Of a DNA stretch of 64,000 bases, positions 7,875-41,059 are shown piece after piece. Below the pieces are notes generated by a model that made no database searches, was not told the origin of the DNA, and saw only the letters and a program-made list of their open reading frames with translations. The DNA is from Escherichia phage vB_EcoM_G9062: sequence record NC_054920.1. One strand, 5' to 3'. The first letter of the stretch is position 1; each line of letters starts with the position of its first letter. Both the position numbers and the translations under genes were made by a program.

Positions 7875-8201
7875 TTATACCTTAGTAATTTTCAGGTCTG
7901 CAAATTTTTTCTTGCGTTGATTTTTCATGCGACGAATAGTTTTATCGGAAATTTCATGCTTTTGATAAGCTTTAGATTCTACACCAAAAGCTTTAACATC
8001 AAATTCTGACAAGATATATTGAACCAACAATTCACGGACAGTATTGCGTCCAATCTTCTGATCATTCTGTTTCATCGTCTGATGAAGCTCTTTTTCCCAT
8101 TTATCCAAAATTTGAGGAGTTACAATATCGCCTTTTTCTAGCAAAGAAACTACTTTATCATATGCGTAAGAATTAATGACGTTTTTAATTTGAATAGTCA
8201 T
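7875..8201 (-). CDS. hypothetical protein (108 aa)
   Basis: ORF; no motif recognised. Confidence 0.4.
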   Translation of the reverse strand: MTIQIKNVINSYAYDKVVSLLEKGDIVTPQILDKWEKELHQTMKQNDQKIGRNTVRELLVQYILSEFDVKAFGVESKAYQKHEISDKTIRRMKNQRKKKFADLKITKV

Positions 8202-8232
8202 ACATTATCCTCAATTACGTTAAAATTTTATT

Positions 8233-8254
8233 ATCCAAAAAGGGCCGAAGCCCT
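8233..8254 (-). terminator. intrinsic terminator (GGGC-UUCG-GCCC + U tract)
   Basis: minus-strand hairpin with UUCG tetraloop followed by UUUUUGG, at the stop of ORF 8254..8454. Confidence 0.5.
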
Positions 8255-8454
8255 TAGCTAAACTTTTTGGCACCCTTCCAGCCTTCGTACATCATTGCGA
8301 CTGACAATGACAAAGCTCCTTCACATGCTGCATACTTATTATTCCAGAACCAATTTAGAAAAACTTCATCCTCAATACCATTGTGTTTCATGTTCTGGAA
8401 AAATTTGGCGCGTTCTTCAGCAATTCGCTGCGATAATTTAGATTCAGGATTCAT
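8254..8454 (-). CDS. hypothetical protein (66 aa)
   Basis: small ORF ending at a terminator hairpin. Confidence 0.35.
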   Translation of the reverse strand: MNPESKLSQRIAEERAKFFQNMKHNGIEDEVFLNWFWNNKYAACEGALSLSVAMMYEGWKGAKKFS

Positions 8455-8670
8455 TTAAATTTCCCAATTACCATTTTCATCAATAAATTTAATCCAGTCA
8501 TTTACTGACCACTTAGTTGTATCGCCTTTTGGAGTAGCATTTAAAGTATATAGCCCTTGCTTAAAAAGCATTCGTTTGATATTCATATTTTCCTCAGCTG
8601 TAACGATAGCACTCGTTTGATTTACGTTTAGCAACTCGTTGAGAAATATTATAATCAAAATCATCGTCAA
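8455..8670 (-). CDS. hypothetical protein (71 aa)
   Basis: small ORF. Confidence 0.3.
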   Translation of the reverse strand: MTMILIIIFLNELLNVNQTSAIVTAEENMNIKRMLFKQGLYTLNATPKGDTTKWSVNDWIKFIDENGNWEI

Positions 8671-8932
8671 TGTAAACTGATTTTTTCAACTTTCTTACTT
8701 CACCACGTAATTGACGATTCAATTCATTCTTAACCTCTGAATCAACACCTCGCATACGTCGCCATTTATCTGAGCGAAAAATGTTTTCAACCATATCTTT
8801 ATGACTTACACCGTCTGGAGCTTTACGCTTTCCAAAATAGTCATAATCACGCACTTTTAAGTCTTTACGACGATACGTTTTACCCATGGAGTTTAATTTC
8901 CTTAGCAACTGAACTAAATACAGCACGGTCAC
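8594..8932 (-). CDS. hypothetical basic protein (112 aa)
   Basis: ORF rich in Arg/Lys; overlaps neighbour by 77 nt so start or neighbour is uncertain. Confidence 0.3.
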   Translation of the reverse strand: MTVLYLVQLLRKLNSMGKTYRRKDLKVRDYDYFGKRKAPDGVSHKDMVENIFRSDKWRRMRGVDSEVKNELNRQLRGEVRKLKKSVYIDDDFDYNISQRVAKRKSNECYRYS

Positions 8933-9193: not shown

Positions 9194-9217
9194 GAGAAAG
9201 AAAGGCCCAGAGGGCCC
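9194..9217 (-). terminator. intrinsic terminator after nrdH
   Basis: minus-strand GGCCC-UCU-GGGCC hairpin followed by UUUCUUUCUC, 3 nt after the nrdH stop. Confidence 0.5.
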
Positions 9218-9220
9218 GTC

Positions 9221-9544
9221 TTAATCTTCTATGATATCTCTATCATATCCAAGTGAAATGAGAGTTTCTTTGAAGTGTTTAATGTTCTTTTGTCTGGAAT
9301 CATTAATGAAAATGACTGGATAACGAATGTTAAGAGATGTGAATCCAGCACGTTTAGCAAGAGATACAATCAGTGGACGATCATACTCAATCTTACCATT
9401 ATTTGTAAGAACTTTATAGAAAGTAAAAGGAGCATTGAGCTCCTTTAGAAGTTTTGTAACTGATTGACATCCAGGACAACGACCTACTTCTTCGGGGATG
9501 CCATAGATTTCAATCTTATTCTTTAAGTTCGAGTTTTGTTCCAC
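9221..9544 (-). CDS. nrdH: glutaredoxin-like protein NrdH (probable GTG start)
   Basis: KIEIYGIPEEVGRCPGCQ glutaredoxin fold with CPGC active site; no in-frame ATG precedes the domain, GTG at 9544 with upstream AGGA; adjacent to nrdG/nrdD. Confidence 0.5.
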   Translation of the reverse strand: MEQNSNLKNKIEIYGIPEEVGRCPGCQSVTKLLKELNAPFTFYKVLTNNGKIEYDRPLIVSLAKRAGFTSLNIRYPVIFINDSRQKNIKHFKETLISLGYDRDIIED

Positions 9545-9827
9545 GAGAAATAATTCCTTGATAAGCCCAGTATGGCGGGTTAACAGAATCCTCACCAGAG
9601 TTTTCTTCAGGAAAATAAACCTGGATAACGAAGCCGGATTCATCAAAGGTGAAATAAGTAGTAGGCAGTTCACCTAACAAATCGGCACGAGCGTTGATTT
9701 CTTCGAGGTCTTGTTCACGTCCAGCCCAGAAGCTTGGGTTCAGACTACATTCATAGAAATAATAGTCATTACCGAACATATCAAAACCATTCCAACTCTC
9801 TACTACATACCGCTCAAAACTAATCAT
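9516..9827 (-). CDS. hypothetical acidic protein (103 aa)
   Basis: ORF whose stop overlaps the nrdH start region in another frame. Confidence 0.3.
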   Translation of the reverse strand: MISFERYVVESWNGFDMFGNDYYFYECSLNPSFWAGREQDLEEINARADLLGELPTTYFTFDESGFVIQVYFPEENSGEDSVNPPYWAYQGIISRGTKLELKE

Positions 9828-31749: not shown

Positions 31750-31846
31750 TTCTGTATTTACCCATTACCGCACTTGGGCTCGACCTTATTACAGGTTGGC
31801 GGGAATCCCTCACAGAATCATGAGGTCCAGGTTATTCCCATGTTAT

Positions 31847-32263
31847 TTAAATGTAAATATTTTTGCCGTAATACTTATACCAGTGTGGCTTCATTAAAAT
31901 TTTTTCATCGAGTCGTTGTTGACTCAACTTAATAGCTGATTTGCATGGATTATAATCATTTTTCCATTCTACTGGAATATCGCTGATGTCAGGAACTTCA
32001 GTATCTTTTATACTGAACCCGCGTTTTAAGCATTCCGTTATAATGTCCGATTGACGCTTTCGCAAAAATTCTAACTTATCGTAAAAGAAAGTAACATGAC
32101 CAGAACCTAAAATAAATTTAGAAGATATTTTAAAATCTTTAACGCGCTTACCGTTTGCCACATGCTTACGAACTATACCAAAAACACGCGGCAATTCACG
32201 GTATTCTGCGATTAAATGTTGATCAGCAAGTTCAGATACTAAAGTCAAATTAATACGAGTCAT
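31847..32263 (-). CDS. denV: endonuclease V (pyrimidine dimer DNA glycosylase)
   Basis: 138 aa; [28 protein letters not shown] matches my recollection of T4 endo V. Confidence 0.85.
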
Positions 32264-32287
32264 TTTATCCCTCCAAGTAACTGTGAA

Positions 32288-32318
32288 TATACTATCACAA
32301 TTCTAGGAGAAAGTAAAC
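32288..32318 (-). promoter_or_regulatory. early promoter upstream of denV (GTTTAC ... TAGTAT)
   Basis: plus gtaaac 32313-32318; -10-like tagtat; GGAG RBS follows. Confidence 0.4.
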
Positions 32319-32322
32319 AACT

Positions 32323-32853
<531 letters not shown>

Positions 32854-35830: not shown

Positions 35831-36094
35831 TTATTTCATATTATTGAAATATTCTTCTGCGATTTCGTCGTTATCATGGTAAACTTTAGAAGACAGTTTA
35901 ACATAACCTTCTGCTGTGAACATATTAATCACAACTTTTACAGTATACCACTGACCGTCTTCATTACCCATTACTGCGTAAGTTTCAAACATCGGATGAT
36001 CAGGACCGATAACTTTAATATCATTCACTGTACGACCGAAATCTTCTGAAACGCATTTCATAAAGAAGTTGAACAGTTCGCCGTAATTATCCAT
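35831..36094 (-). CDS. hypothetical protein (87 aa from MDNYGELF)
   Basis: internal ATG with GGAGAA RBS; ORF track's N-terminal 40 codons translate the promoter (FFTKLFTS motif). Confidence 0.4.
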   Translation of the reverse strand: MDNYGELFNFFMKCVSEDFGRTVNDIKVIGPDHPMFETYAVMGNEDGQWYTVKVVINMFTAEGYVKLSSKVYHDNDEIAEEYFNNMK

Positions 36095-36137
36095 TTCATT
36101 CTCCAAGTTGTTTTCTGTATCAGTAGTTGATAGTTGT

Positions 36138-36167
36138 ATAGTACCATGGAAGAACAGAGATGTAAAC
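36138..36167 (-). promoter_or_regulatory. T4-type early promoter cassette (GTTTACA ... TACTATAC)
   Basis: plus tgtaaac 36161-36167, atagta 36138-36143, gttgatagttgtatagtacca core. Confidence 0.5.
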
Positions 36168-36289
36168 AGTTTTGTGAAAAAATTTTTAGGGAATTCTAGG
36201 GCAGGGATGGGCAATTAAAGGATAGGTAATATATTATAAAGGGTATAAACTAAATGATGCCTAGAGAGGTCCAGAAAGGCCTAGATACC

Positions 36290-36314
36290 AAAAAGCCCTA
36301 TCATTTAGATAGGG
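36290..36314 (-). terminator. intrinsic terminator (CCCUAUC loop GAUAGGG + U5)
   Basis: minus-strand hairpin followed by CUUUUU, 8 nt after the stop of ORF 36323..36886. Confidence 0.5.
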
Positions 36315-36322
36315 ATTTAAAA

Positions 36323-36886
36323 TTATTTACCTAGTTTACTTATTATAGCTTCTGCAGCAGCTTTTAGCTTAGATGCAGTGTTAATACGATTTTTAATTTC
36401 AGTATACGCATCGCCAAGAACATCAAGGCTATCAGAATAAACACTTACACTATTGCGTTCGCTATTTGAAATAGAACCTTTAGTTTTGCGGTCAAAATCG
36501 GTGTACACGTCTTGAAGATCGCGGGCTGCCTTCTTTGCATCATCCAATGCATCAAGAGCTTTATTCAAAGCATTAACGTATTTTTTAGTGTCGAACATAT
36601 TCTTAGAAATTTTAACAGGTGCGCGTTCAGGAGTAGCTAACACAGATTTAGGAACCTGAGCGCCAGATGCCAATTTCTTAGAAATTTTGAAAAATGCTTT
36701 ATTGAATTTATTTTCTTGACTCATTGTAAAAGAACTATTATCGATGTTGTACATTTCAATAGCTTTAGCTTTCCACTTAAGAAAATCGCCGCGGTCTTTT
36801 GGGTCCAATTGGAAGAATACTTTAGTAAGATCTGCTTCAGATGGTAATTTTGCTGCTTCGGTTAAAAATTCGGCATAGGTTTTCAT
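36323..36886 (-). CDS. internal-protein-like capsid-targeted protein (187 aa)
   Basis: N-terminus MKTYAEFLTEAAKL resembles the T4 IP capsid-targeting sequence (MKTYQEFIAEA) with prohead-protease-type LxE site. Confidence 0.5.
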   Translation of the reverse strand: MKTYAEFLTEAAKLPSEADLTKVFFQLDPKDRGDFLKWKAKAIEMYNIDNSSFTMSQENKFNKAFFKISKKLASGAQVPKSVLATPERAPVKISKNMFDTKKYVNALNKALDALDDAKKAARDLQDVYTDFDRKTKGSISNSERNSVSVYSDSLDVLGDAYTEIKNRINTASKLKAAAEAIISKLGK

Positions 36887-36974
36887 TTAAAATCCTTGAA
36901 ATAATTTATCGGTTGGTTATTAATTATTTATTACTTTGTTACTATCCGTAACAGCGTTATCCGAGTGATTCAAA

Positions 36975-37004
36975 CTAAAAAGCCCCAACCTTTCGGTCGG
37001 GGCT
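36975..37004 (-). terminator. intrinsic terminator, copy 2 of a repeated 33-bp element
   Basis: minus-strand AGCCCCGACC-GAAA-GGUUGGGGCU + UUUUUAG; identical to the element at 37531-37559. Confidence 0.65.
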
Positions 37005-37011
37005 AAGAATG

Positions 37012-37485
37012 TCATTTGATTTGTTTAGCAGACCAAATGCGGTCTTTAATAATTTTTTGGATGTCTTCAACATACTCAAGAGAGTGAACATGTGGATTAT
37101 CTTTGAAACTATAAGCACGGGCTAACTTTTGGCCTTCGGTTTTGATTACTAAAAGCTCTTTAAGGATAGCTTCATATTTGGAGATAATTCCTTTAACAAT
37201 ATTTTTCTCTTGTGTGACTTTAGGATCTTCTTTAGGAGCAGGTTTACCTGAAGCCTTTGCAAAAGCAGCTCCAGTAGCAACTAAACTTTTCCAAGCCATA
37301 CTAACTGCATTCCCTGTAAATCCTTCGGCTTTCATATCACGAGCAAATTGGAATCGTGATTCATCGGAAGCATCTTTATAGGAATATTTACCCGCGGCAA
37401 TGGCAGCTTTTGCAACAGCTTGAATTTCAGTGCTAGATGCTTCATTTAACACCGCTTCATTTAAAAATTGAGTATATGATTTCAT
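37012..37485 (-). CDS. internal-protein-like capsid-targeted protein (157 aa)
   Basis: N-terminus MKSYTQFLNEAVLNEA is CTS-like; Ala/Lys-rich body. Confidence 0.5.
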   Translation of the reverse strand: MKSYTQFLNEAVLNEASSTEIQAVAKAAIAAGKYSYKDASDESRFQFARDMKAEGFTGNAVSMAWKSLVATGAAFAKASGKPAPKEDPKVTQEKNIVKGIISKYEAILKELLVIKTEGQKLARAYSFKDNPHVHSLEYVEDIQKIIKDRIWSAKQIK

Positions 37486-37530
37486 CTTATTTCCTGTTTT
37501 AATTCGGGGTTTTAATATACTTATTTATAC

Positions 37531-37559
37531 TAAAAAGCCCCAACCTTTCGGTCGGGGCT
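37531..37559 (-). terminator. intrinsic terminator at the 3' end of the tRNA/stable-RNA operon, copy 1
   Basis: same hairpin + U tract as 36975-37004. Confidence 0.65.
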
Positions 37560-37564
37560 AAGCC

Positions 37565-37876
37565 TTGCGGCAACCTTGTCGGGGTTCCACCTGCTAAGGC
37601 AAGTGTTTGTACGAAACGCCGGGATTCGAACCCGGTTATTAAGCAGTTGACGCTACTCAATATTTTTTAAAAGGCCATATCTCGACCATATCCGAACGTT
37701 CCGTCAAAAACGCTACTCGGCTTACGGCAAAGATATTTCCTCGAATCGATAATTCGGTGCGCCGTTTCTGCTGTGATATAAGGGGACATTAACAAAACAT
37801 AAAGATTTATTAATACCAGTCCTTAAACAGGGAACATCAGTCCGACGACTTGCCGGTAGCGACCCGGCTTCTTGTC
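37565..37876 (-). ncRNA. candidate stable RNAs downstream of tRNA-Arg (position of T4 RNA species 1/2)
   Basis: about 310 nt non-coding between tRNA-Arg and the terminator; contains a tRNA T-arm-like CCGGGTTCGAATCCCGG (37618-37640 rc); synteny with T4 rnaC/rnaD. Confidence 0.35.
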
Positions 37877-37952
37877 TGGTCGAGGCAGTAGGGATCGAAC
37901 CTACGACCCAGGACTTAGAAGGTCCTTGCTCTTCCTTCTGAGCTATGCCTCG
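37877..37952 (-). tRNA. tRNA-Arg (anticodon TCT)
   Basis: cloverleaf with acceptor CGAGGCA/TGCCTCG, anticodon loop CTTCTAA, T-loop GGTTCGATCC, encoded CCA. Confidence 0.85.
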
Positions 37953-37956
37953 TATT

Positions 37957-38031
37957 TGGCGGACGTGATAGGATTCGAACCTATAACCAATCGCTTAACA
38001 GGCGATCGCTCTGCCATTGAGCTACACATCC
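37957..38031 (-). tRNA. tRNA-Asn (anticodon GTT)
   Basis: acceptor GGATGTG/CACGTCC, anticodon loop CTGTTAA, T-loop GGTTCGAATCC, encoded CCA. Confidence 0.8.
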
Positions 38032-38035
38032 AAAT

Positions 38036-38122
38036 TGGTGGGGAGTGGTGGAGTCGAACCACCCGAGTCGCAATGACAATGAATTTACAGTCCACACCGC
38101 TACCTCTACGGGATAACTCCCC
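38036..38122 (-). tRNA. tRNA-Tyr (anticodon GTA), type II with long variable arm
   Basis: acceptor GGGGAGT/ACTCCCC, anticodon loop CTGTAAA, T-loop GGTTCGACTCC, 87 nt with CCA. Confidence 0.75.
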
Positions 38123-38131
38123 AAATTAATT

Positions 38132-38206
38132 TGGTGGCCCTGGGTGGAATTGAACCACCATCTGGCGATTATGAGTCGCTTGCTTGAACCTTCCAGCTAC
38201 AGGGCC
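38132..38206 (-). tRNA. tRNA with CAT anticodon (probably tRNA-Ile, lysidine type; alternatively Met)
   Basis: acceptor GGCCCTG/CAGGGCC, anticodon loop CTCATAA, T-loop GGTTCAATTCC; sits where T4 has tRNA-Ile. Confidence 0.6.
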
Positions 38207-38207
38207 T

Positions 38208-38283
38208 TGGTGCTGATTGACGGAATCGAACCGCCGATCTTCTCATTACAAGTGAGTTGCTCTACCTACTGAGCTAAATCAGC
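38208..38283 (-). tRNA. tRNA-Thr (anticodon TGT)
   Basis: acceptor GCTGATT/AATCAGC, anticodon loop CTTGTAA, encoded CCA. Confidence 0.85.
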
Positions 38284-38288
38284 AAAAC

Positions 38289-38378
38289 TGGCGGAGGCGA
38301 TAGGATTTGAACCTATGAGTCGCCGGAGCGACTGCCGGTTTTCAAGACCGGTGCATTAAACCACTCTGCCACGCCTCC
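38289..38378 (-). tRNA. tRNA-Ser (anticodon TGA), type II
   Basis: acceptor GGAGGCG/CGCCTCC, anticodon loop CTTGAAA, long variable arm, encoded CCA. Confidence 0.85.
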
Positions 38379-38380
38379 AG

Positions 38381-38454
38381 TCTCCGTGGCAGGATTTGAA
38401 CCTACGACATTCTGCTCCCAAAGCAGACGCTCTACCAAACTGGGCTACACGGAG
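38381..38454 (-). tRNA. tRNA-Pro (anticodon TGG)
   Basis: acceptor CTCCGTG/CACGGAG, anticodon loop TTTGGGA, T-loop GGTTCAAATCC; CCA not encoded. Confidence 0.8.
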
Positions 38455-38463
38455 TAAATTAAA

Positions 38464-38538
<75 letters not shown>

Positions 38539-38543
38539 AAATT

Positions 38544-38630
38544 TGGTGCGAGAAGTGGGACTCGAACCCACAAGGAAATCATTCCGCAGCATTTTAAGTG
38601 CTGTGCCTTTACCAATTTGGCCATTCTCGC
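38544..38630 (-). tRNA. tRNA-Leu (anticodon TAA), type II
   Basis: GCGAGAATGGCCAAATTGGTAAAGGCACAGCACTTAAAATGCTG... matches my recollection of T4 tRNA-Leu. Confidence 0.85.
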
Positions 38631-38631
38631 G

Positions 38632-38704
38632 CTGGGAATAAAGGACTCGAACCTTTGCATCCTGGAATCAAAATCCAGTGCCTTACCAACTTGGCTAATT
38701 CCCA
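38632..38704 (-). tRNA. tRNA-Gln (anticodon TTG)
   Basis: acceptor TGGGAAT/ATTCCCA, anticodon loop TTTTGAT, T-loop GGTTCGAGTCC; 1-nt spacer to tRNA-Leu. Confidence 0.8.
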
Positions 38705-38801
38705 ATTATTAACAAAGGCTCTTAAGCAAGAACCCTTGATGATAGAGGGTATTAATCAGTGCGATATGAGTTAATAATAACAAATAATTCTTAAAGCATA
38801 T

Positions 38802-39089
38802 TTACCATTTATAATAATACATATTTACGATGCATTCAAGACCCAAAGGATTCTTGAAAATATCATATTCAAGAGGACCTTTTTCTGTTTCAATAAAGAA
38901 ATCAAAATTTACTGTATTAAATTTACGTTCTTCCTTCACTAATTTAACTTGAGAAGATGAACGGTCAATGTAAACCTTTTCAACTTCAAAACATGTTAAA
39001 ATGCCATAATCATCAATCAAAGCTTTAGCCGCGTCTTGATCATATTTATATCCATTTTCAATGGATGATACTTTCGCATAAAGAATCAT
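38802..39089 (-). CDS. hypothetical protein (95 aa)
   Basis: ORF upstream of the tRNA cluster. Confidence 0.4.
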   Translation of the reverse strand: MILYAKVSSIENGYKYDQDAAKALIDDYGILTCFEVEKVYIDRSSSQVKLVKEERKFNTVNFDFFIETEKGPLEYDIFKNPLGLECIVNMYYYKW

Positions 39090-39091
39090 TA

Positions 39092-39490
39092 TCAGCCTTC
39101 ATCAACAATAGTGTGAGTATTAGCATTTACGATTTGCCACCAATCAAAGCGATTAGAATCCATCGGTTTGTTTTCATTTTCTTTGATAATGTCACGGAGT
39201 TCATCTTCAGAGAATGCTTTAGCAATTAAATCGGTATACCCACCACGGGGATAATAATTATCACCTGCAAACAAAAGGAAATTTACCTTCCCGGAAGCAA
39301 CATATGCTTCCTTAGGATACTTGTTTCCTGCGTGGTCAACCACTTCAATATAACGGTAAGGAATATCGGTTCTTTCAACCCATTGCCATGCCGCCGCAGG
39401 GGAATCGAAAGCATCTACACCTAAACGATTATCTTCATCTTTAGACGGATTATTTTCGTAATCCGCATATACATAATATTCAACGTTCAT
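39092..39490 (-). CDS. hypothetical protein (132 aa)
   Basis: ORF; no motif recognised. Confidence 0.4.
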   Translation of the reverse strand: MNVEYYVYADYENNPSKDEDNRLGVDAFDSPAAAWQWVERTDIPYRYIEVVDHAGNKYPKEAYVASGKVNFLLFAGDNYYPRGGYTDLIAKAFSEDELRDIIKENENKPMDSNRFDWWQIVNANTHTIVDEG

Positions 39491-39675
39491 TATTCACCTT
39501 TAGAAATTTTATCCATAACAATAGCAATTAAACCAATTAAAAATGCTACTACAAGTGAAAACACATTTTCTGCTGTAGTCAATAATCCACATATAAATCC
39601 AACAAACATTGAAAAACTAAAAGCGGAAGCAGAAATTGCAATAGCAACATTTCGAATTAATTCACAACGTTTCAT
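39490..39675 (-). CDS. small membrane protein (61 aa)
   Basis: two hydrophobic segments; GAGGAG RBS; PeSL promoter upstream. Confidence 0.35.
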   Translation of the reverse strand: MKRCELIRNVAIAISASAFSFSMFVGFICGLLTTAENVFSLVVAFLIGLIAIVMDKISKGE

Positions 39676-39703
39676 TTTATTCTCCTCAGTAGTAGATAGG
39701 GTA

Positions 39704-39733
39704 ATAGTATCACTACCCTATCTAAAAGTAAAC
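39704..39733 (-). promoter_or_regulatory. PeSL-like early promoter (GTTTAC ... TACTAT inside a 9-bp inverted repeat)
   Basis: plus agataggg-ta ATAGTATCAC ta-ccctatct then gtaaac 39728-39733. Confidence 0.55.
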
Positions 39734-39967
39734 TTATTTTTTACGAAAAATTGATTTATTTTCTGCTGCCCATTTTTCAATAACTGCAGCAGGACCAGTA
39801 ACAACAATTTTATCACCGTAATCTTCTGCGGCGAGTTGACCGAAATTATCTAATGCATCACGAAGAACTCCATGAGGCATTTCACCCATTTTATCTTTCT
39901 TGCCAGTGTAAATAAACTCAACTTTTACATCAGCAGTTTCAGCAATAAATTCTTGGTAAGTTTTCAT
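39734..39967 (-). CDS. internal-protein-like capsid-targeted protein (77 aa from MKTYQEFIAE)
   Basis: N-terminus MKTYQEFIAE is identical to the T4 IP capsid-targeting consensus; ORF track has a 4-codon upstream extension. Confidence 0.55.
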   Translation of the reverse strand: MKTYQEFIAETADVKVEFIYTGKKDKMGEMPHGVLRDALDNFGQLAAEDYGDKIVVTGPAAVIEKWAAENKSIFRKK

Positions 39968-40001
39968 TTTGATTTCCATTTGGTTTTGTTTTGATAGGGT
40001 A

Positions 40002-40031
40002 ATAGTATCACAACTAAAACCCTATGTAAAC
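40002..40031 (-). promoter_or_regulatory. PeSL-like early promoter (GTTTACA ... TACTAT)
   Basis: plus tgtaaac 40025-40031, atagta 40002-40007, gatagggta...accctat inverted repeat; upstream caactttgtgaaattattttaaat is shared with the element at 40333. Confidence 0.55.
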
Positions 40032-40043
40032 AACTTTGTGAAA

Positions 40044-40301
40044 TTATTTTAAATCTTCTAATCGTTTCTTCATCTTAGAACCATTTTTAGCAATTTCTCC
40101 TGCATCGGAGCATAATGCTAAAAGTGCTTTAACTTTAGTTTGGTCTCCTTTAAAAGATGAAGGATCGACCGCAGCAGCAAGTTCTTTAATACGAGAGAAA
40201 AGACGCTCAGCTTCAGCTAAAGCCATTCCAAGCTTTACTTCCATACCGTGGGAAGATTCAGTGATAGTAGTTTTTGTAGCAAACTCTTTGAAAGTTTTCA
40301 T
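40044..40301 (-). CDS. internal-protein-like protein (85 aa)
   Basis: N-terminus MKTFKEFATKTTITE is CTS-like with a candidate I/L-x-E cleavage site. Confidence 0.45.
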   Translation of the reverse strand: MKTFKEFATKTTITESSHGMEVKLGMALAEAERLFSRIKELAAAVDPSSFKGDQTKVKALLALCSDAGEIAKNGSKMKKRLEDLK

Positions 40302-40332
40302 TTTTATTTTCCTAATTAATTTTGATGAGGTA

Positions 40333-40361
40333 ATAGTATCACTACCTCATCAGTATGTAAA
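40333..40361 (-). promoter_or_regulatory. PeSL-like early promoter (GTTTACA ... TACTAT within a perfect 10-bp inverted repeat)
   Basis: plus tgatgaggta ATAGTATCAC tacctcatca then tgtaaac 40355-40361. Confidence 0.55.
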
Positions 40362-40374
40362 CAACTTTGTGAAA

Positions 40375-41059
<685 letters not shown>

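Follow-up and report, generated by a model that had tools for sequence, protein, structure and literature searches.

We analysed a 64,000-nucleotide stretch of Escherichia phage vB_EcoM_G9062 (NC_054920.1), called the window here, in which four small open reading frames (ORFs), A, B, C and D, begin with leaders of the kind that carry the internal proteins of phage T4 into the capsid. The best explanation, to which we give a probability of roughly 80%, is that all four are T-even internal proteins, which would be packaged into the head, processed by the prohead protease gp21 and injected into the next host. Two of the four are already named, D as Ip5 and C as Ip6, and one has been characterised. 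What is new is that A and B, so far unannotated, are read as members of the class, together with the cassette anatomy at a third locus and an essentiality puzzle. The class itself has reportedly been known since 1994 (work of Repoila et al., as relayed by a paper that cites it).

The window comes from a Tequatrovirus, since over the region 36000-41000 it shares 99.9% identity with three phages (Yersinia phage PYps35T, Shigella phage JK08 and Escherichia phage a15), and more than 1100 T4-like records match that region. All four ORFs are on the minus strand. The original prediction placed them correctly, on both sides of the tRNA cluster, and its quoted N-termini were right. The ORFs and two of their leaders are as follows (a slash marks a predicted gp21 cut).

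36323-36886, minus strand: gene A, 187 amino acids, N-terminus MKTYAEFLTE/AA
36857-36886, minus strand: leader codons of A (capsid-targeting sequence), 10 amino acids
37012-37485, minus strand: gene B, 157 amino acids, N-terminus MKSYTQFLNE/AVLNE/AS
37441-37485, minus strand: leader of B with its two tandem sites
39734-39967, minus strand: gene C, 77 amino acids, N-terminus MKTYQEFIAE/TA
40044-40301, minus strand: gene D, 85 amino acids, N-terminus MKTFKEFATKTTITE/SS

Leaders and Predicted Processing

The strict leader pattern MK[TS][YF]x[EQ]F, searched in six frames of the window, matched A, B, C and D only, against a chance expectation of 0.0015 leader matches per window in composition-preserving shuffles. 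Looser leader patterns, applied to 1175 candidate starts in the window, added no further ORF. The idea that these are T4-type capsid-targeting leaders is thus borne out. The similarity also reaches a gp21 site, as an L/I-x-E motif lies inside the first 15 residues of every one of the four proteins. In A, the site LTE/AA after residue 10 is the sole [LI]xE site of the protein. B has two sites in tandem, LNE/AV after residue 10 and LNE/AS after residue 15, and C has IAE/TA after residue 10. The site of D, ITE/SS after residue 15 (residues 13-15), lies past the 11 residues that had been quoted originally; its counterpart in T4 IPI is ITE/AT after residue 19.

In the leader of T4 IPIII, targeting depends on residues 4 and 7 and processing on residues 8 and 10; the processing protease, gp21, cleaves behind L/I-x-E (PMC9026906). 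Y4, F7, L/I8 and E10 are all present in A, B and C, that is, all four of the functionally mapped IPIII positions. D has F4 and F7 at the targeting positions and its ITE site further on. The leader of C, MKTYQEFIAE, is the exact 10-residue leader of T4 IPII and IPIII. The leader of D is of the IPI type and is 15 residues long (MKTFKEFATKTTITE/SS), parallel to MKTFKEFTSTTTPVSTITE/AT of T4 IPI. The leaders use different synonymous codons, which indicates conservation at the protein level.

Behind the leaders, the mature forms of A, B and D have isoelectric points (pI) of 9.2-9.5 and contain 14-15% lysine, like IPI*, IPII* and IPIII* of T4. The bodies share no sequence similarity, and BLASTP among the four matches the leaders only. 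The claim that the bodies are unrelated stands at this level. A and B, however, both fall into PHROG 2280 and share a predicted architecture; a profile comparison of the two gave E = 0.24 (see below).

In T4, proteins with such leaders join the scaffolding core and are trimmed by gp21; approximately 300 copies remain with the DNA and are then ejected (PMC9026906, PMC3012670). Ten leader residues are enough to package foreign proteins (PMC9026906, PMC3012670). The genes for gp21, gp22, gp67 and gp68 lie outside the window, as a module 6-8 kb past the position of the window end in JK08, the 99.9% identical phage. This module and the established T4 route together suggest the same route for all four proteins. 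Through its N-terminal capsid-targeting sequence of 10-15 residues, each nascent protein would bind to the scaffolding core that gp22 forms in the prohead, and gp21 would then cleave past the L/I-x-E site. Probably tens to hundreds of copies of the basic mature protein would stay beside the DNA inside the head. They would be ejected into the next host together with the DNA or before it, and would there block the 'first-response' nucleases that attack modified T-even DNA. By analogy with T4, C and D very likely take this route, and A and B likely do.

Genes C and D in the ipI Region

C is annotated as ip6, 'internal head protein' or 'internal virion protein'. It is 100% identical to Bas37_0260 of phage KarlGJung (Bas37), at the same locus and without a single sequence difference. 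A transposon-sequencing preprint showed that Bas37 without Bas37_0260 turns specifically sensitive to McrBC of E. coli K-12, and its authors named the protein a new type IV restriction inhibitor with an internal-protein leader (bioRxiv 10.1101/2025.11.20.689424). The packaging of Bas37_0260 was deduced in the preprint from this leader. An in-frame upstream ATG (MEIK-MKTY...) at 39968-39979 (minus strand) serves as the start of C in some records. This ATG overlaps the ribosome-binding site, and the MKTY start is therefore preferred. In another phage (contig L036, 4721-4732), a different internal-protein gene is likewise preceded by the MEIK extension.

The sequence of D is identical to that of T6 Ip5 (UniProt Q38630, common to 43 Tequatrovirus entries) and to bas37_0261, and the curated Ip5 of RB51, at the same locus, matches it with 96% identity. 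D is Ip5, and like C it lies in the ipI slot of T4 between 57B and trna.4. It is the Ip5 known from T6, T2, RB15, RB70 and RB51. T4 IPI (Ip1), the inhibitor of the GmrSD of E. coli CT596, sits in the same slot. The promoter and ribosome-binding region is identical (the 120 nucleotides 5' of D are those found 5' of T4 ipI), the long leader type MKTFKEF...ITE/ is common to both, the charge is similar, and the mature lengths are 70 residues for D and 76 for IPI. The body of D, however, has no detectable similarity to IPI. Two promoters belong to these genes.

40002-40030, minus strand: T4 early-type promoter before C, part of a 71-nucleotide cassette
40333-40361, minus strand: T4 early-type promoter before D, in the 5' region identical to T4 ipI

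The 71-nucleotide early-promoter cassette is present in three copies, one each at C, D and trna.4, and T4 ipII and ipIII carry the same type of early promoter as D. C and D are parted from the tRNAs by three homologues of trna.2-4.

The body of D is 54% identical (E = 4e-17) to a 93-residue 'internal head protein' from the denV-e locus of phage ZN18. The ZN18 protein has the other leader type, MKTYSEFLSE/SILNE/A. Leader types and loci thus appear interchangeable for one body family.

C and D are best read as anti-restriction effectors. For C the target is known through Bas37_0260 from the preprint, and for D we infer a target of this kind. In the preprint tables, insertions in bas37_0261, which is D, are depleted approximately 4-fold (log2 fold change -2.09, adjusted p ~0) in a comparison that we took from the sheet order to be K-12 versus the uropathogenic E. 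coli (UPEC) strain CFT073; the authors do not discuss this depletion (bioRxiv 10.1101/2025.11.20.689424). The neighbouring 57B/Acb1 gene is also depleted in that first resampling sheet (-1.56; bioRxiv 10.1101/2025.11.20.689424). The IPI*-insensitive 'UT' GmrSD was considered as an enzyme of CFT073, but it is from UTI89 (PMC4437046), and we therefore claim no particular target for D.

The anti-restriction theme of the original prediction is supported by the match of C to the McrBC inhibitor and by Ip1, Ip2 and Ip3, each of which inhibits one GmrSD variant, a different one in each case, with no cross-protection (PMC12373910). IPIII is reported to be required on ECOR17.

Genes A and B, an Insertion at a Third Site

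A and B lie in approximately 1.2 kb of DNA, from 37527 down to 36315, that is extra relative to T4 (blastn of T4 against the window). In the direction of transcription this insertion reads late promoter and B, hairpin, A. T4 homology ends right after the rnaC terminator hairpin and restarts at a weaker hairpin upstream of e.8. The parts are listed here in the same direction.

37536-37559, minus strand: rnaC terminator hairpin (10-bp stem, GAAA loop, U-run, -20.3 kcal/mol), the left insertion boundary relative to T4
36315-37527, minus strand: insertion absent from T4
37522-37529, minus strand: perfect T4 late-promoter motif TATAAATA, starting 44 and ending 36 nucleotides upstream of the ATG of B
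36981-37004, minus strand: identical second copy of the hairpin between B and A, within an exact repeat of the 33-nucleotide hairpin region
36296-36314, minus strand: weaker terminator-like hairpin after A, where T4 homology restarts

A is identical to bas37_0243 and RB14ORF136, and B is equivalent to RB32ORF132c and bas37_0244. A was found in 163 phage records and B in 510. The curators of RB51 described B as 'flanked by 34 bp imperfect direct repeat', yet left it hypothetical. We infer that A and B are unannotated members of the internal-protein class, arranged as a double cassette with the same leader type after the rnaC terminator.

The predicted mature A has 177 residues, 19.6 kDa, pI 9.5, 14.7% lysine and a net charge of +9, and is similar in size, lysine content and pI to T4 IPIII* (183 residues, pI 9.65, net charge +10). 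If cut after E15, mature B would have 142 residues, 15.6 kDa and a pI of 9.5. T4 IPII and IPIII (Ip2 and Ip3), which inhibit the GmrSD of ECOR21 and ECOR17, respectively, share the exact leader with C and are approached by A and B as close variants that keep Y4, F7, L8 and E10. The bodies are unrelated, and the place is different. A and B follow the tRNA/rnaC cluster beside e.8, whereas the denV-e locus is empty here.

32264-32322, no strand: empty spacer of 59 bp between denV (31847-32263) and e (32323-32817); T4 has ipII and ipIII here

With denV and e only 59 bp apart, ipII and ipIII are absent, and the original prediction was correct that no internal-protein gene stands between them. A and B may partly compensate for this loss. 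A one-for-one replacement of ipII and ipIII by A and B was considered and is weakened by ZN18, which has A together with a denV-e internal protein, and by RB51, which has B together with Ip4. The Ip4 of RB51 and T2, located between vs.8 and denV, shares its leader class with B and is equally long (157 residues). Its body is unrelated to B, and its locus (31750-31846 in the window) is empty here. In the RB51 contig, Ip4 (1022-1495) has a standard leader and marks a further leader-gene site between vs.8 and denV.

A word-indexed search with A returned only relatives that are at least 88% identical. Exhaustive HMMER with A found one remote homologue, P0026 (29% identity, E = 2e-5), which starts MITFNEFLNE/SEMINE/A. 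A scan of IMG/VR for leader-coding DNA gave a relative of A in L036, a different T4-like contig of 170 kb (8145-8762, 205 residues, MKTYNEFLNE/SVLNE/A). It lies after the tRNAs and directly upstream of e.8, and in the ipI slot of that phage there are three other leader genes. The leaders of P0026 and of the L036 relative are of the same doubled type as that of B. The relatives of B in Klebsiella and Yersinia phages have the N-terminal domain alone in common and keep F-x-x-F-L-x-E/AS. In the alignment of the B family, E15 is invariant and A16 nearly so, while leader length varies. The leader is thus kept in diverged relatives of A and B and outlasts the body, the pattern expected if the leader has a function of its own. 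A metagenomic protein of 116 residues, P0010, is chimeric. Its N-terminus resembles the L036 gene beside e.8 (9207-9605), and the C-terminal half matches residues 112-176 of A with 97% identity, a sign of recombination inside A.

Both A and B match PHROG 2280, a group with no assigned function, over the full profile length (2e-53 and 2.8e-60, respectively). We considered A and B as paralogues on this ground. With the leaders removed, hhalign gave the E = 0.24 noted above, and homology is not demonstrated; PHROG 2280 therefore seems to pool two groups with a common leader and architecture. The predicted architecture comprises the leader, a three-helix domain, a disordered Pro/Lys-rich linker and a long helical hairpin. 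The AlphaFold models were made from a single sequence for A (predicted local distance difference test, pLDDT, of 63) and from a 10-sequence alignment for B (pLDDT 75). The leader of B has a pLDDT of approximately 50, consistent with a flexible propeptide. Distant homology of A and B is possible.

Weighing the Assignment

Several observations weigh against the view that all four are packaged internal proteins. C, with its near-neutral pI of 6.5, is the charge exception among the four. Internal [LI]xE motifs are present in D (two) and B (one), and the four proteins together have 3 of them versus 3.6 expected by chance. We had considered avoidance of internal gp21 sites as a mark of these proteins; it is not seen at this sample size. 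Sequence searches of Pfam, NCBIfam and the PDB returned nothing for any of the four. A Foldseek search of the A and B models against BFVD found only their own families, and the structure prediction that had been suggested gave no functional hint from the fold of either protein. A has no canonical promoter; upstream of it there are only the late-like AATAAATA (7/8) and GATAAATT (6/8). A is 'hypothetical' in all 40 records listed among its 163, A and B are hypothetical in every listed annotated record, and their cluster names are all 'hypothetical' as well, apart from one spurious IMG label. They also stand outside the two Ip loci recognised in the literature (57B-trna.4 and denV-e), between rnaC and e.8. 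We found no virion proteomics or N-terminal sequencing for A, B or this phage in the literature. Finally, A (as bas37_0243) was scored 'Essential' in Bas37, with 1 of 48 TA sites hit (HIDEN-SEQ supplementary table).

A and B, like C and D, are probably effectors. We give their anti-defence role less confidence than their packaging route. The explanation that competes best, though it is a tentative one, has A and B packaged but acting elsewhere than on type IV restriction, either against another early defence or as a basic, DNA-condensing aid to packaging and ejection. Both proteins are lysine-rich with a predicted helical hairpin, and solid-state nuclear magnetic resonance has shown that the lysines of internal proteins touch DNA phosphates (PMC3012670). 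Insertions in B showed no phenotype, either on K-12 or in the other comparisons seen. However, the five internal proteins whose targets are known all act on type IV enzymes, Ip1, Ip2, Ip3 and Bas37_0260 directly and Ip5 by its locus.

We consider it rather unlikely that the main role of A is morphogenetic, as a head-core protein and IPIII-like assembly factor instead of an injected effector, and that it has become indispensable for head assembly or DNA packaging in phages without ipII and ipIII. The score of bas37_0243 speaks for this explanation. Loss of IPIII in T4 halves the rate of head assembly and yields more polyheads (PMC9026906). Mature A is close to IPIII* in size and charge, its low-confidence model has a long helical hairpin at the C-terminus that recalls scaffold-like proteins, and the window has no ipII or ipIII. 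In the same screen, however, hoc, inh, wac, uvsW, segC and segE come out as essential although they are known to be dispensable, and T4 ipI, ipII and ipIII are non-essential. T4 itself is entirely without A, as are most phages that bear B, and ZN18 has A in addition to its denV-e internal protein. A and IPIII have no sequence similarity outside the leader.

The score may also have a technical origin. The part of the HIDEN-SEQ methods available to us describes no promoter for the anti-CRISPR marker of the transposon, which relies on read-through transcription. It may simply be that insertions do not survive selection when they fall in a late-only, doubly terminated unit such as A. The other three genes were hit freely in Bas37 and scored non-essential (29/34 TA sites for B, 15/15 for C and 18/18 for D), and the preprint makes no mention of bas37_0243 (bioRxiv 10.1101/2025.11.20.689424). 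That A is a capsid-targeted protein the phage cannot do without is doubtful. Two mechanisms are possible if it is, namely a role in head-core assembly after the loss of ipII and ipIII, or neutralisation of a factor present even in laboratory K-12. A would then be the first indispensable member of an otherwise dispensable class, and rnaC-e.8 would be a third internal-protein locus with a different biology. The unexplained score of A is the one element able to change the view of the class.

It is very unlikely that A and B owe their common N-terminus merely to cassette recombination, in which promoter, ribosome-binding site and first codons were copied together in front of ordinary, unpackaged cytoplasmic accessory proteins: promoter, leader and terminator DNA is indeed repeated around these genes, B has a direct repeat on both sides, and we found no proteomic evidence of packaging, but the A and B leaders differ from those of C and D in synonymous sites and flanking DNA while keeping the functionally mapped residues, the leader is kept in relatives whose bodies are just 29-50% identical, the ten leader residues suffice for packaging in T4, and B has a late promoter.

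The Internal-Protein Class and Its Loci

With all four proteins read as internal proteins, the window can be compared with the wider class. The IMG/VR scan gave at least 120 loci with at least approximately 125 distinct leader ORFs, and among the loci listed these are mostly basic. The bodies of approximately 100 listed leader ORFs are depleted in [LI]xE, with 42 motifs observed versus 73 ± 8 in shuffles, consistent with selection against internal gp21 cuts. The listed loci with T4 markers hold 56 leader ORFs, of which 19 are in the ipI slot, 31 around denV/e/vs.8 and 3 beside e.8. The literature recognises 'two Ip loci' (PMC12373910). A third location, used less often but repeatedly, is the e.8 site.

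Of all phage molecules, internal proteins encounter host defences first. Among those whose targets are known, each blocks its own modification-dependent nuclease, and each new family is therefore a candidate inhibitor of an unmatched defence variant. New families are also candidate host-range determinants of therapeutic T4-like phages. Labelling A in its 163 records and B in its 510 as leader-bearing candidates would add what no listed annotation has flagged so far.

A leader-like N-terminus also occurs far from any Ip locus. In the contig of Yersinia phage ZN18, a 54-residue ORF near primase and spackle begins with MKTYKEFIKEDMVAGDSGG... and has an acidic body (pI 5.0).

Gene Order and Neighbouring Features

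The gene order is T4-like, all on the minus strand: vs genes, denV, e, nudE, e.2-e.8, A and B, the rnaC/rnaD homologues, ten tRNAs, trna.2-4, C and D, 57B, 57A, gene 1 and gene 3. The ten tRNA genes (37877-38704, minus strand) are without the segB homing endonuclease. T4 has eight tRNAs and segB, and the combination is different again in Bas37 and RB51. The tRNA-Met(CAT) at 38132-38206 (minus strand) is the counterpart of tRNA-Ile(CAU) in T4 and RB51. The homologues of the T4 stable RNAs rnaC and rnaD (approximately 37527-37876, minus strand) are 89% identical to T4 and are covered by no Rfam family. A 'tRNA-???' called by ARAGORN at 37609-37704 (minus strand) falls inside them.

The 57B homologue (40375-40833, minus strand) is still named 'RNA ligase' or hypothetical in several GenBank records. 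It matches the Pfam family Acb1, an anti-CBASS cyclic-nucleotide phosphodiesterase, with E = 2.7e-60, and Acb1, Ip5 and Ip6 thus make up a small counter-defence cluster.

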